IMG/VR virus record: IMGVR_UViG_2671180432_000009
DNA length: 8,373 nucleotides
DNA from: a virus
Lineage: Duplodnaviria; Heunggongvirae; Uroviricota; Caudoviricetes
Direction: 5' to 3' (one strand)
The notes below the pieces were generated by a model that worked only from the letters and a program-made list of their open reading frames with translations, did no database searches and had not been told where the DNA came from. The position numbers were made by a program, and so were the translations under genes. This document shows positions 1,071-8,373 of this stretch, piece by piece (positions within the stretch are counted from its first letter, which is position 1; each line of letters opens with the position of its first letter).

Positions 1071-1104
1071 GGAGTTTACTCACATCTGACAAAATCAATA
1101 TAAA

Positions 1105-1126
1105 CAGCCCCTCCGGAGAGGGGCTG
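1105..1126 (-). terminator. Stem-loop (9-bp stem CAGCCCCTC/GAGGGGCTG, 4-nt loop); probable intrinsic terminator for the minus-strand cargo operon
   Basis: On the minus strand the hairpin is followed by TTTATATTGATTTTG; it lies 76 nt past the stop of the ORF ending at 1202 and between convergent ORFs. Confidence 0.4.
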
Positions 1127-1201
1127 GAGAGTGGCGCTATGTGCCATTGCATGGTGCCGGGTGCCTCCCGGTGAATTCAGTACCAGCACCTGAATCCGCG
1201 A

Positions 1202-1373
1202 TTATCCCATATACCTACTCGCTGATTGCCCCTCCGCACAGGGGGATTCACCATGCCAGTTTCTTTTAACAAACTCCCCGCAAAACAGACAACTGTCAAC
1301 CGTCTGAATTGTGAAGTATTTAAAAATTTCTCCCGCTAACTGATACCCGGCTAACAGTCTGGCGTTTTCTTTT
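1202..1373 (-). CDS. Hypothetical protein, C-terminal 56 codons visible (...KENARLLAGYQLAGEIFKYFTIQTVDSCLFCGEFVKRNWHGESPCAEGQSASRYMG*); interrupted by N-run
   Basis: Open frame from the N-run to TAA at 1204..1202; all three Arg codons are AGA/AGG. A possible N-terminus (MIAYCFCEWHCSSRIMSVLADGVLVA) at 1687..1610 cannot be linked in frame because of the N-run. Confidence 0.4.
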
Positions 1374-2615: not shown

Positions 2616-2691
2616 TGGTGGCCCTTGCTGGATTTGAACCAGCGACCTGGCGATTATGAGTCGCTCGCTCTCACCACTGAGCTAAAGGGCC
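2616..2691 (-). tRNA. tRNA with CAU anticodon, tRNA-Ile2 (lysidine) type
   Basis: Minus-strand read GGCCCTT-TA-GCTC-AGTGGTGA-GAGC-G-AGCGA-CTCATAA-TCGCC-AGGTC-GCTGG-TTCAAAT-CCAGC-AAGGGCC-A-CCA. Acceptor pairs 7 of 7; one A-C mismatch at the top of the anticodon stem. Closely resembles E. coli ileX and phage ileZ as recalled. Confidence 0.85.
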
Positions 2692-2731: not shown

Positions 2732-3729
2732 TCATCCGTTCTGGCTGACTAAATCCTGTACTTCCCGAACCGTCTGCTCAAAACGTTCAGTCTCCAGCTC
2801 AACGCCAATTGCACGACGCCCGAGCGCCAGTGCCGCTTTCACTGTCGAACCCAACCCCATGAAAAAATCTGCAATCAGGTCACCCGGACGACTGCTAGCG
2901 CTGATTATCTGCTGCAGCATTTCTGCCGGTTTTTCGCACGGATGTTTCCCGGGATAGAACTGCACCGGTTTATGCGTCCACACATCGGTATACGGCACCT
3001 GCACCGTCACGCCAAAATACCGCCGCAGATGTTTATATTCACTCAGCAGCTCCGCATACTGCCGGTTCAGTGAGGTATACGTATCCACCAGCTGGTGGTG
3101 GAGCTTTTCCAGTTCACCACGCCGATGCTTCTCTTCTGCCACCCGGGCAAACAGCGCCTGTAATTTCAGATAATCGCTTTCATTCGGCAACTGCCACTGA
3201 CCGGCACTGAACCAGTGCGACACCATGTTTTTCTTTCCTGTGGCATCTGCAATCTGTTTTGCCGTTATCCCCAGGGCAGCTCGCGCATCACGAAAGTAAN
3301 NNNNNNNNNNNNNNNNNNNNNNNNNNNNNNNNNNNNNNNNNNNNNNNNNNNNNNNNNNNNNNNNNNNNNNNNNNNNNNNNNNNNNNNNNNNNNNNNNNNN
3401 NNNNNNNNNNNNNNNNNNNNNNNNNNNNNNNNNNNNNNNNNNNNNNNNNNNNNNNNNNNNNNNNNNNNNNNNNNNNNNNNNNNNNNNNNNNNNNNNNNNN
3501 NNNNNNNNNNNNGTTTCAGCACCCGCCAGAACTGCGCCAGACACTGGTCCAGCCACTTCAGGTAATCATCGTCGCCCTTCCACTGGTTATCCCAGCCCTC
3601 AGGCTTCACTTTAAAGTACGGCGGGTCCGTGACTATCAGGTCAACAGAATTTTCGGGTAACGACCGGATAAATTCCAGGCAGTCGGCGTTGATTAACTCA
3701 CAACTGGATATTTTTACAGTATTAAGCAT
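2732..3729 (-). CDS. DNA methyltransferase, beta-class N6-adenine (or N4-cytosine) type; middle part lost in the N-run 3300..3512
   Basis: N-terminal segment (3729..3513) has motif IV DPPY (LIVTDPPYF); C-terminal segment (3299..2732) has motif I FxGxG (DFFMGLGST). The order IV then I indicates beta class. The two segments are in different frames if the N-run length is taken literally. Confidence 0.8.
3300..3512. other. Run of 213 N (unresolved or masked sequence) inside the methyltransferase gene
   Basis: Directly visible. Confidence 1.
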
Positions 3730-7068: not shown

Positions 7069-7136
7069 AAGTGTGGGTGCATTGAGGATGCCTGACCCAT
7101 CAGAGGTGGCGAGGGATTTCTCCCCCGCCTGGTCTC

Positions 7137-7292
7137 TTACTCCTCAGGTTCGTAAGCTGTGAAGACAGCGACCTCCGTCTGGCCGGTTCGAATTCGTACC
7201 TCGCAGAGGTCTTTCCTCGTTACCAGTGCCGTCACTATGACGGTTAAACAGATGACGATCAGGGCGATTAACATCGCCTTTTGCTGCTTCAT
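7137..7292 (-). CDS. hok: Hok/Gef-family type I toxin, 51 aa
   Basis: MKQQKAMLIALIVICLTVIVTALVTRKDLCEVRIRTGQTEVAVFTAYEPEE closely matches the Hok/Gef family (HokD/RelF-like as recalled); AGGAG Shine-Dalgarno upstream. Confidence 0.85.
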   Translation of the reverse strand: MKQQKAMLIALIVICLTVIVTALVTRKDLCEVRIRTGQTEVAVFTAYEPEE

Positions 7293-7349
7293 AGCCTGCT
7301 TCTCCTTGCCTTTCGGCACGTAAGAGGCTAACCTAGATTTGCCGTTCAT
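7137..7349 (-). CDS. mok: Mok-like in-frame N-terminally extended reading frame (70 aa) overlapping hok
   Basis: ORF starts 19 codons upstream of hok in the same frame, as in chromosomal mokC/hokC loci as recalled. Confidence 0.55.
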   Translation of the reverse strand: MNGKSRLASYVPKGKEKQAMKQQKAMLIALIVICLTVIVTALVTRKDLCEVRIRTGQTEVAVFTAYEPEE

Positions 7350-7400
7350 AGATTGAGCCTCAGATTAATGTTAAGCGTCTTGCCGGACGCGTAATGTTAA
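7295..7400 (+). ncRNA. Expected position of a Sok-like antisense RNA opposite the mok translation-initiation region (boundaries not resolved)
   Basis: Inference from hok/sok architecture only; a weak plus-strand hairpin GCGTC-TTGCCG-GACGC lies at about 7364..7379. No promoter identified with confidence. Confidence 0.25.
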
Positions 7401-7468
7401 CTGGGGCTTTTCTCTATCTGCCTTTTGGTGTTCATGCCTGAGACAGATAGCCTCAAGCACCCGCTGCA

Positions 7469-7496
7469 ATTCTACTTAACTCTCCTTTTCCCGCAA
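7469..7496 (-). promoter_or_regulatory. Putative promoter of the hok/mok mRNA
   Basis: Minus strand: -35 TTGCGG (7496..7491), 16-nt spacer, -10 TAGAAT (7474..7469), upstream of a leader beginning GCTTGAGGCTATCTGTCTCAGGC that resembles hok mRNA 5' ends as recalled. Confidence 0.35.
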
Positions 7497-7503
7497 ACCG
7501 TTT

Positions 7504-7587
7504 TTATCCCCAGCGGCAAATCGAATACACCACCAGCGCCACCGCCATCGCAATTCCTACCGTTGTTAATGCTTCAGGCCAGGTCAT
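7504..7587 (-). CDS. Putative 27-aa hydrophobic peptide ([27 protein letters not shown])
   Basis: Absent from the ORF track (under 60 aa). ATG 7587 overlaps the TGA of the upstream gene (ATGA); GGAGGA Shine-Dalgarno 9 nt upstream; single predicted transmembrane-like segment. Confidence 0.3.
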
Positions 7588-7928
7588 CGTAAAATATCCT
7601 CCACGCTTATCAGTCCGTTCCGCTCCAGATAACTCATCGCCTTATCCGGTAATTTGCAGTCTGGCTTCGCTTTCCTCAGTTGCCAGGTTAACTGCTTTAC
7701 CAGCATGGTTAACTCATCGACCAGACGCTGATATCCCACTGGTTTGTATTCATGCAATTTACCGGCTGGCTCTGCTGCCAGCGATACCAGTGCGATTTCC
7801 AGAACAGCAATATCCATCTTATATGTGCGGATGATGTCATGGTCGATTGTGCCCGGTATGCACAGTCTCTGTGCTTCAATAGTCTCCTCTGCGTGAGCTA
7901 TTAACTGCTCTCTGGTAAAAGTCGTCAT
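7584..7928 (-). CDS. Hypothetical protein, 114 aa
   Basis: Six-frame ORF; start overlaps the stop of the upstream 55-aa ORF (ATGA); shares an N-terminal MTTxT motif and an IAL-SL-AEP motif with that ORF. Confidence 0.6.
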
Positions 7929-8092
7929 GCCGTAGCCCCTTCTTGATATTTTTCAAACCAGAACACAACCGGCTCTGCTTCCAGCGATGCCAGCGCAATC
8001 CGTGCCAGTTCCATTTGTTCACCACGGGTAAGCCCGTTTTCAAGCGGGTTTTTAATGAACAATTCAATACGTTCTTTGGTAATAGTGGTCAT
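7925..8092 (-). CDS. Hypothetical protein, 55 aa ([55 protein letters not shown])
   Basis: Absent from the ORF track; strong AAGGAG Shine-Dalgarno 6 nt upstream of ATG 8092; stop overlaps the next start. Preferred over the 63-aa ORF at 7876..8067, which is in another frame. Confidence 0.5.
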
Positions 8093-8102
8093 GTGTTACT
8101 CC

Positions 8103-8333
8103 TTAACCCGCAGTGCTTTCAACTGATGAGGGGAACAAAATCTTTTCATCAAACCCTGCATTCATATCATGAACAGCAACACACCAATCCATCGACGAAC
8201 GATTATCAAGAGCCTCCATGATTTCATCCATGCGGCGTAGGTCATACAGGTAAATGCTTTTATCGCCAATGGTGTAAAAGCCAATTTTTTTCGGTGATGG
8301 ATGAGGTGTACTGGCAATAGCGGACACTACCAT
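8103..8333 (-). CDS. Hypothetical protein, 76 aa
   Basis: Six-frame ORF; first gene of the coupled block; its first 10 codons and upstream region lie in the right inverted repeat. Weak Shine-Dalgarno. Confidence 0.5.
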   Translation of the reverse strand: MVVSAIASTPHPSPKKIGFYTIGDKSIYLYDLRRMDEIMEALDNRSSMDWCVAVHDMNAGFDEKILFPSSVESTAG

Positions 8334-8373
8334 TTGTTCTTTTTTTAAGCAGCCATCTGATGATATTTTTCCC
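8302..8373. repeat. Right terminal inverted repeat (partner of 1..72)
   Basis: See 1..72. Confidence 0.9.

Follow-up and report, generated by a model that had tools for sequence, protein, structure and literature searches.

We have analyzed an 8,373-nucleotide stretch of DNA from a virus of the Caudoviricetes (IMG/VR record IMGVR_UViG_2671180432_000009; hereafter the window), and in particular a block of four small open reading frames (ORFs), ORF1 to ORF4, all of which are read from its minus strand between positions 8333 and 7504. The best overall explanation of this block, to which we would give a probability of roughly three in four, is an accessory-gene array of a lambdoid prophage that has been damaged by the insertion sequence IS600, in which ORF2 and ORF3 are mosaic genes and ORF4 is an independent and conserved gene for a membrane peptide of 27 residues. 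As a whole, the block is ordinary lambdoid mosaic DNA. Its noteworthy part is ORF4, a well-delimited small gene that is present in thousands of copies in the prophages of Escherichia coli and Shigella, including the clinically important Shiga toxin (Stx) phages. The class of small membrane proteins is still far from fully charted, and larger membrane machines are controlled by many of those already known. With its clear comparative support and easy genetics the ORF4 family is a cheap and testable candidate for addition to this class; for example, its start codon can be removed by an ATG to ATA change that keeps the stop codon of the upstream gene (TGA to TAA).

A previous sequence-only reading of the window had described these frames as a translationally coupled block of four genes, containing a pair of tandem paralogs and an unannotated membrane peptide of 27 residues, and had suggested that the block might be a toxin–antitoxin or small-membrane-protein module associated with the adjacent hok gene. 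Rereading the sequence confirmed the coordinates that it gave for the four frames, both of its ATGA overlaps and the AAGGAG motif that it placed over the stop codon of ORF1.

Conservation and genomic contexts of ORF4

ORF4 occupies positions 7504..7587 (minus strand) and encodes 27 amino acids. Its start overlaps the stop of ORF3 in the tetranucleotide ATGA at 7587-7584, and a Shine-Dalgarno (SD) sequence, GGAGGA, can be read at 7597..7602 (minus strand) inside the 3' end of ORF3, 9 nucleotides before the ATG. An SD of this GGAG type is located 7-10 nucleotides upstream of the frame in every context that was read. There are more than 25 variants of the peptide, and every intact one is 27 codons long. 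Residues W3, P4, A6, G11, R25, and W26 hardly vary, and only small residues (A or S) occur at position 15. The variation is concentrated at third codon positions (the mean entropies at positions 1, 2, and 3 are 0.25, 0.16, and 0.60, respectively), and synonymous codons are exchanged (TAT/TAC, TGC/TGT, CGC/CGA, and GGA/GGG/GGT). When six diverged lineages were compared (synonymous divergence, dS, up to ~1.5), the pairwise ratio of nonsynonymous to synonymous divergence (dN/dS) ranged from 0.11 to 0.57 and was below 1 in all 15 pairs; the pooled ratio of nonsynonymous to synonymous polymorphism (pN/pS) was 0.39. The sequence-only reading had named the comparative conservation of open frames as a check on its proposal, and for ORF4 this check came out in its favor: among 81 readable loci, which had been selected solely for carrying ORF3, the frame is intact in 72, and the remainder comprise one in-frame insertion of two codons, one lost stop, six frameshifts, and one nonsense mutation. 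With its frame, length, start, and stop all retained and a clear excess of synonymous change, ORF4 is well supported by these sequence comparisons as a genuine, conserved protein-coding gene.

A number of observations weigh against this interpretation and should be considered together. A pN/pS of ~0.4 is only moderate, and on this value alone ORF4 could not be told apart from an antisense frame with the same third positions, for which the pooled value is 0.35. Inactivated copies exist, not only the six frameshifts and the nonsense mutation among the 81 loci mentioned above but also a clonal lineage, represented by 11 loci or contigs and by phage POCJ13, with a TAG at codon W3; the peptide is therefore dispensable in prophages. 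The product has no homology to any characterized protein, and its matches in Pfam, NCBIfam, and PHROG are either below the cut-offs or above the default E-value limit (KdpF, E = 0.12; DUF883_C, E = 0.029; phrog_4612, E = 0.011). The search patterns have biased the sampling of relatives, all of which are from Escherichia and Shigella. The window's own copy, with IS600 upstream of it, may be poorly transcribed, and both the translation of the peptide and its insertion into the membrane are predictions drawn from the sequence.

One alternative is that ORF4 makes no functional peptide, its sequence being conserved as a nucleic-acid element or the act of translation alone being what matters, for example by keeping ribosomes on the mRNA as far as a terminator or the hok promoter. 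The frame is very short and is not called by PGAP in the records inspected, inactivating mutations are found in several lineages, its pN/pS is only ~0.4 with the antisense frame scoring alike, and a terminator hairpin often follows it. However, the six nearly invariant residues and the length of 27 codons have been kept despite synonymous codon change, and the hydrophobicity has been kept through many substitutions; a role exercised only in cis would not conserve such residues. Furthermore, no Rfam family overlaps ORF4 and the antisense frame lacks a consistent start or end. Of all the alternatives this is the one that survives best, and we nonetheless judge it to be improbable.

Three other interpretations of the frame were examined. 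An antisense gene under ORF4 was rejected; in the context of the window no start codon is found across ORF4, and elsewhere the ends of the antisense frame are inconsistent. A programmed frameshift joining ORF4 to the protein encoded upstream was looked for by sequence reading only, and no slippery heptamer was visible at the junctions. The idea that ORF4 is a detached C-terminal tail of DUF551 proteins was dropped, as the three DUF551 members that were read (P0122, P0124, and P0134), which are the kind of gene found upstream of ORF4 at other loci, do not contain the peptide. In a protein collection clustered at 90% identity the 27-residue peptide is placed together with DUF551 proteins of 185 amino acids; this looks like an artifact of clustering or naming that could mislead automatic annotation. 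There is also a natural deletion (P0029, from E. coli, on 7 contigs; window ~7504-7928) in which the N-terminal part of ORF3 runs in frame into ORF4 to give a protein of 114 amino acids.

The surroundings of ORF4 were analyzed in 252 copies gathered from viral contigs. In 250 of these the start overlaps the stop of the upstream gene, and this occurs behind at least five unrelated upstream C-termini. The genes that precede ORF4 elsewhere include L0139 in phage 933W, a DUF551 gene in BP-4795, genes annotated as EaA or Ea22 in TH18 and PhiR12_1, and others, and in these contexts the overlap is either ATGA or a single base. The boundaries of the gene coincide with the limits of homology between phages. 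The homology between the window and ArgO145-type phages begins where the ORF4 stop has its last base (7503-7504), and at least 16 different downstream sequences start right after this stop. The homology between the window and 933W, on the other side, spans hok through ORF4 and stops at the ORF4 ATG, the upstream gene in 933W being a different one. ORF4 thus behaves as a mosaic module of its own, with breakpoints at its ATG and just past its stop.

This module is widely distributed within a narrow range of hosts. Of 5426 complete E. coli genomes, 1634 (30%) carry it, at 3110 places; a single genome may have as many as 7 copies, and 163 of the copies lie on plasmids. A scan of one genome per species revealed it only in Escherichia and Shigella, plus two tiny contigs that resemble contaminants. 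The latter are filed under Acinetobacter idrijaensis (L092, 369 bp) and Xanthomonas pisi (L094, 431 bp); they match the query at 77% identity over its residues 1-26, as do the 933W-type copies, and are most likely contamination with DNA of E. coli or of an Stx phage.

The claim that the 27-residue frame had gone unannotated was borne out, as there is no coding sequence for it in the RefSeq (PGAP) records inspected nor in those of 933W, BP-4795, VT1-Sakai, and Min27. At the genome matches the annotation lists either the upstream gene that overlaps the frame or no feature; a few submitters have labeled the frame as a "prophage protein" and one phage record annotates a frameshifted version of 36 amino acids. 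The peptide strings were not found in the searchable full texts, nor in the supplements of a study of small genes in the Sakai strain and of a study of the Enterobacteriaceae microproteome. The family is hence largely unannotated and, as far as we have searched, undescribed.

Two minor observations concern the junctions of this module. The part of the DUF551 gene that encodes its C-terminus ...PLPEPPQEVNQ* carries the sequence GGAGGTGAATCAATGA (at 1684-2154 of L084, the L0139/L0140 junction of 933W, and at several DUF551 loci), which comprises an SD and an overlapping start and is reused for whichever gene comes next, either ORF4 or L0139; the 3' end of the DUF551 gene thus seems to supply a portable junction between modules. 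Moreover, the 134-kb record of phage vB_EcoM_TH18 (L087), which is filed under the Vequintavirinae and thereby classed with large phages of the virulent type, carries a lambdoid-style stretch with EaA, ORF4, and ea22 that may be either a chimeric assembly or a real acquisition.

The predicted peptide and its hok/sok neighbor

The sequence-only reading had predicted that the product of ORF4 is a single hydrophobic helix, and our analysis agrees: the hydrophobic core (residues 6-24) has a mean Kyte-Doolittle hydropathy of 2.16, and values of 2.1-3.0 were obtained for the same core across five variants. The predicted transmembrane helix is accompanied by conserved aromatic residues at its interfaces (W3 and W26) and by a charge bias due to the conserved R25. 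These features suggest a single-pass peptide of the inner membrane with a tryptophan at each interface, and its basic C-terminal end would point to an orientation with the N-terminus out and the C-terminus in. The conserved motif G11-xxx-A/S15 suggests that the helix engages in helix–helix contact.

The linkage of ORF2, ORF3, and ORF4 by overlapping stops and starts suggests that their translation is coupled. ORF4 would then be the last cistron of early accessory arrays and would be translated by an SD-assisted termination–reinitiation at the AUGA, with the SD being supplied by the 3' end of whichever gene happens to precede it. As for the action of the peptide, the most likely one would be that its helix binds either itself or a protein of the host inner membrane during early phage expression. 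Such partner binding is proposed because this is how known small membrane proteins such as KdpF, AcrZ, CydX, MgtS, and MgrB act. The resemblance to these proteins extends to several properties: they also consist of a single transmembrane helix and 20-50 residues, are often missed by annotation, and are often internal to operons with overlapping or adjacent starts, and the small-xxx-small motif of ORF4 is of the helix-packing type. In contrast to them, ORF4 is phage-borne, has no sequence homology to the group (the match to KdpF cited above is below the cut-off), and has upstream neighbors that are soluble phage proteins and not a membrane complex.

On this basis we would tentatively suggest, as a possibility less likely to be right than wrong in its full extent, that ORF4 founds an undescribed family of phage-encoded membrane microproteins of 27 residues, often present in multiple copies, carried by ~30% of E. 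coli genomes, and represented among the Stx phages in 933W, VT2-Sakai, BP-4795, and Min27. The members of this family would be coupled to any accessory gene that precedes them and would act on a protein of the host inner membrane, with consequences that might include superinfection exclusion, the control of transport or signaling, or an influence on the outcome of the lysis–lysogeny decision.

The hok/sok type I toxin–antitoxin locus that follows ORF4 in the window lies at 7137..7462 (minus strand) and is of the HokD type (Rfam RF01794 at 7287-7462, 112 bits; Pfam HOK_GEF, E = 3e-23; RefSeq hokD). Its Rfam match starts at 7462, 42 nucleotides beyond the ORF4 stop, and the intervening gap between this stop and the hok mRNA (7463..7503, minus strand) plausibly contains the hok promoter; the presumed elements are TAGAAT at 7474-7469 with TTGCGG or TTTGCG ~16-17 nucleotides upstream, although this presumed promoter was not reported by the consensus scan. 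ORF4 is therefore situated outside the element that specifies the hok mRNA and the sok antisense RNA. Many ORF4 loci, moreover, have no hok; there, the gene adjoins DUF4222, xis, and int (BP-4795 and PhiR12_1), or stands before terminator hairpins or before convergent RelE/ParD (ParDE-type) genes. Scans of Pfam, NCBIfam, and PADLOC yielded no match of any of the four products to a toxin–antitoxin or defense profile; neither a Pfam or NCBIfam domain of this sort nor a PADLOC model was matched that would indicate a type II pair, whether formed by ORF2 and ORF3 or by ORF3 and ORF4. The hok/sok locus is a self-contained neighboring module, and its link with ORF4 is one of mosaic neighborhood and not of function, which speaks against the idea of a toxin–antitoxin or membrane module tied to hok.

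Independently of hok, ORF4 might itself be a membrane-damaging peptide, either a killer resembling type I toxins or holins, or a modulator of growth or lysis. Its size and its hydrophobic helix recall ShoB, DinQ, and Ibs, which are type I toxins, and like Hok/Gef and other members of that class it is a small hydrophobic peptide of prophages, which in the window even adjoins hokD. It differs from them in that it is a cistron internal to an operon, at its distal end and presumably coupled to the gene upstream, with no evident promoter of its own, antisense RNA, or folded leader; it usually occurs without hok, and it shows no Pfam match to HOK_GEF (PF01848) at E-values up to 1 nor a match to any other toxin profile. 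In addition, the gene is far from the lysis cassette and up to seven copies of it are tolerated in one genome. Because of this operon position and multicopy tolerance a toxic or lytic role is the less likely one, and we consider it a shade more doubtful than the absence of a functional peptide; a peptide whose helix would bind itself or a membrane protein of the host is what we prefer for ORF4.

Mosaic ORF2 and ORF3 and the chimeric ORF1

The two genes in front of ORF4 are themselves assembled from parts. ORF2 (7925..8092, minus strand; 55 amino acids; RefSeq WP_000207997) bears the UniRef name "Eaa protein"; its SD, the AAGGAG at 8099..8104 (minus strand), overlaps the stop of ORF1 and lies 6 nucleotides before the ATG at 8092, as read from the sequence. 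It overlaps ORF3 (7584..7928, minus strand; 114 amino acids; RefSeq WP_000206826) in an ATGA at 7928-7925. That these two genes resemble each other, as the sequence-only reading had noticed, was confirmed by BLASTP (33% identity, E = 1e-5), and both match the same four PHROG families (phrog_60, phrog_660, phrog_3323, and phrog_5117), the match of ORF3 to phrog_660 having an E-value of 8e-43. The homology is, however, restricted to the 54 N-terminal residues, and the tandem paralogy that had been deduced from it does not hold.

ORF2 consists of an Eaa-type N-terminal module (approximately residues 1-40) followed by a tail of 15 residues, which also forms, residue for residue, the C-terminal end of a 121-residue HNH endonuclease (BLASTP against the HNH endonuclease of ArgO145). 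In 55 of 77 related loci ORF3 is preceded by ORF2; in 19 the HNH gene stands there instead, carrying the identical tail and likewise with a -4 overlap onto ORF3. ORF2 is, from this sequence evidence, best regarded as a recombinant stub in which the module has been joined to the tail of an HNH endonuclease gene. In ORF3 a variable helical hairpin at the N-terminus ends in the motif IAL-SL-AEP and is followed by a linker and a C-terminal module; in an alignment of 17 homologs the N-terminus is variable and the C-terminal module (residues 57-114) is nearly invariant. The N-terminus of ORF3 is also found on DUF551 C-termini (homologs P0064 and P0066), and other homologs join many different N-termini to its C-terminal module. 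Duplication of one gene next to the other was accordingly rejected as the origin of the pair, given the N-terminal restriction of the similarity, the HNH tail, and the occurrence of the ORF3 C-terminus on other N-termini. Judging from these alignments, what the two genes share is a mobile N-terminal module of the many mosaic Eaa/DUF551-type lambdoid proteins.

A repeat search revealed a direct repeat of 29 nucleotides, one copy of which lies in ORF2 (7971..7999, minus strand) and the other in ORF3 (7768..7796, minus strand); the copies are 86% identical, have a spacing of 203 nucleotides, and both encode the IAL-SL-AEP motif. A deletion between them (203 nucleotides) predicts a fusion protein of 101 amino acids with the N-terminus of ORF2 and the C-terminus of ORF3, and a 101-residue protein that matches this prediction exactly exists (P0031 and relatives, from Shigella and E. 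coli). The motif is considered a working recombination joint because the predicted recombinant occurs in the databases, and the repeat constitutes a clean, documented case of how recombination at short homologies shuffles phage accessory genes. Rare in-frame fusions of ORF2 with ORF3 (P0001 and P0002, 167-168 amino acids; window 7584-8092) have arisen in another manner, by small indels near the ATGA junction.

This organization is familiar from the Ea22, Ead, EaA, and DUF551 mosaic proteins (PMC10834534, PMC7093339), in which an N-terminal helical segment is shared and the C-terminal domains are interchangeable; the ea22 genes of Stx phages, in particular, are mosaics in which the N-terminal portion is held in common and the C-terminal domain, DUF551 among others, is exchanged (PMC10834534). 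ORF2 and ORF3 have the same construction, a shared N-terminus with swappable C-termini; apart from the UniRef name of ORF2, neighboring genes in related prophages are annotated as ead or Ea22-like. They differ from Ea22 itself, a protein of 182 amino acids with a demonstrated pro-lysogenic function, in that both are much shorter, have no predicted long coiled coil, and do not reach the family models: at E-values up to 1 neither produced a match to any family in Pfam or NCBIfam, the Pfam Ead_Ea22 and DUF551 models and the NCBIfam ead/Ea22-like model included. An AlphaFold2 model of ORF3 (mean predicted local distance difference test score, pLDDT, 73) has helices at residues 6-26 and 30-51, with block means of 86-91 over residues 11-50, a disordered linker at 56-62, and C-terminal helices of lower confidence. 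When the model was compared with viral structures it gave only generic helical-hairpin matches, all with E-values above 0.05, and a sequence search of the PDB with ORF3 found nothing meaningful.

ORF1 is the clearest departure from a block of four intact genes. The right end of an IS600 element (IS3 family) occupies 8302..8373 (minus strand), with the transposase stop TAA at 8347-8345 and a terminal inverted repeat that ends ...CAGTACACCTCA at 8302. By megablast, bases 8373..8302 match annotated IS600 transposase copies; an IS600 copy in another locus (L257) matches the window up to ...CACCTCA and then diverges, and the flanks of different IS600 copies differ beyond that point. The homology of the window to uninterrupted prophages ends at 8300-8301. 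The 76-residue frame of ORF1 (8103..8333, minus strand; stop TAA at 8105-8103) is thus a chimera: its ATG (8333) and first 10-11 codons (8333..8302) are IS600 sequence and the remainder (8301..8103) derives from the 3' part of a phrog_1714 family gene, residues 10-76 aligning to positions 21-87 of the 87-position profile. The intact homolog has 87 amino acids, with its own AAGGAGAG site and ATG, and an alignment to the intact locus reveals that IS600 replaces the 5' end of the gene, with the loss of both SD and ATG and of about the first 21 codons. As its ATG sits inside the IS600 end, ORF1 is not an intact gene, and the block of four described by the sequence-only reading contains one truncated chimera. 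Among the 77 related loci most have the intact 87-residue gene in front of ORF2 with the same 10-nucleotide spacing, and the 76-residue form is present in 3. In the window IS600 has thus hit the first gene of the array, removing its 5' end and presumably cutting the array off from its upstream promoter. This correction guards against a false annotation as a four-gene operon.

The exact 76-residue ORF1 has been recorded mainly from Shigella sonnei, where it is labeled as a "prophage protein" (Q3Z0Y9), and it is present on 832 contigs; the window itself is therefore likely to derive from S. sonnei. The right end of IS600 supplies an ATG that reads outward (8333), so that a chimeric ORF arises together with the truncation of the target gene; the IS600 copy of L257 likewise adjoins a pseudogene annotated as lacking its N-terminus. 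A sequence search of the PDB with the intact ORF1 found nothing meaningful.

Finally, the proposal that the four ORFs form one functional, coupled module, with a tandem duplicated pair and a toxin–antitoxin or small-membrane-protein system tied to hok, is very improbable and has been largely refuted by these mosaic patterns: its overlaps and AAGGAG site are real, the arrangement ORF1-ORF2-ORF3-ORF4 recurs in related prophages, and ORF4 is directly upstream of hok both in the window and in 933W, but ORF1 is here an IS600 chimera, the components are swapped independently of one another (HNH for ORF2 in 19 of the 77 loci, ORF4 behind at least five unrelated genes), ORF4 does without the self-contained hok/sok in many contexts, and toxin–antitoxin or defense profiles are not matched.

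The array and the remainder of the window

Profile scans together with Pfam, Rfam, and transfer RNA (tRNA) searches detected DUF968, RusA, and Q-antiterminator domains in the window, as well as hok and tRNAs, and gave the following order on the minus strand: the small ORFs, hok/sok, the DUF968 gene, rusA, Q, a DNA methylase gene, and two tRNAs. The window is a lambdoid prophage region around the Q antiterminator gene. Near-identical DNA is present in many E. coli chromosomes, and RefSeq annotates the matching loci with three "hypothetical proteins" (of 87, 55, and 114 amino acids) between the replication-region genes and hokD. The same gene order is found in phage vB_EcoS-689R5, and the annotated prophages and phages that share it carry cI/cro and O/P-type replication genes upstream. 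The block is thus best read as the distal end of the accessory genes that an Escherichia/Shigella lambdoid prophage carries as an array, with the replication genes upstream of it and hok/sok, DUF968, rusA, and Q downstream.

Arrays of this sort are assembled from exchangeable modules that are packed together by overlapping stops and starts, an arrangement that could allow ribosomes terminating upstream to translate the downstream cistrons. The packing of the block is not unusual, because elsewhere in the same window Q and rusA overlap by 4 nucleotides (5123/5120) and rusA abuts the DUF968 gene (5500/5501). A scan of 7100-8373 for promoters and terminators gave nothing above the shuffled expectation. 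Pfam, NCBIfam, and PADLOC scans of the four products found no match above the cut-offs, and their PHROG matches are all to families of unknown function, except for a weak match of the ORF2 tail to an HNH-endonuclease family (E = 0.0021). In its location the block resembles the lambdoid nin and ea arrays (lambda nin and exo-xis, P22 ea), which lie between the replication genes and Q in some phages and, in others, occupy the far end of the leftward operon beside xis and int. These arrays, too, contain many small genes of unknown function with overlapping stops and starts and a gene-by-gene mosaicism whose junctions fall at gene boundaries. The block differs from them in that its four products have no match in Pfam or NCBIfam to any named protein family of lambda nin or exo-xis, and in that the copy in the window is interrupted by IS600.

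Some features of the window lie apart from the block. The DNA methyltransferase gene at 2732-3729 (minus strand) seems to be split into overlapping frames, 2732..3556 and 3265..3729, each with a part of the N6_N4_Mtase domain, and the related prophage L001 has a single methyltransferase gene of 1050 nucleotides; the split gene is probably a frameshift pseudogene. The tRNA gene at 2616-2691 (minus strand), with a CAT anticodon, was identified as tRNA-Met by ARAGORN and as tRNA-Ile by RefSeq at the equivalent position in L001, and the latter label would fit the lysidine-modified Ile2 type. Downstream of the tRNAs and near a DUF3927 ORF, there is a strong, full-length Rfam match at 1096-1285 (minus strand) to the small RNA STnc100 (RF02076, 133.6 bits).

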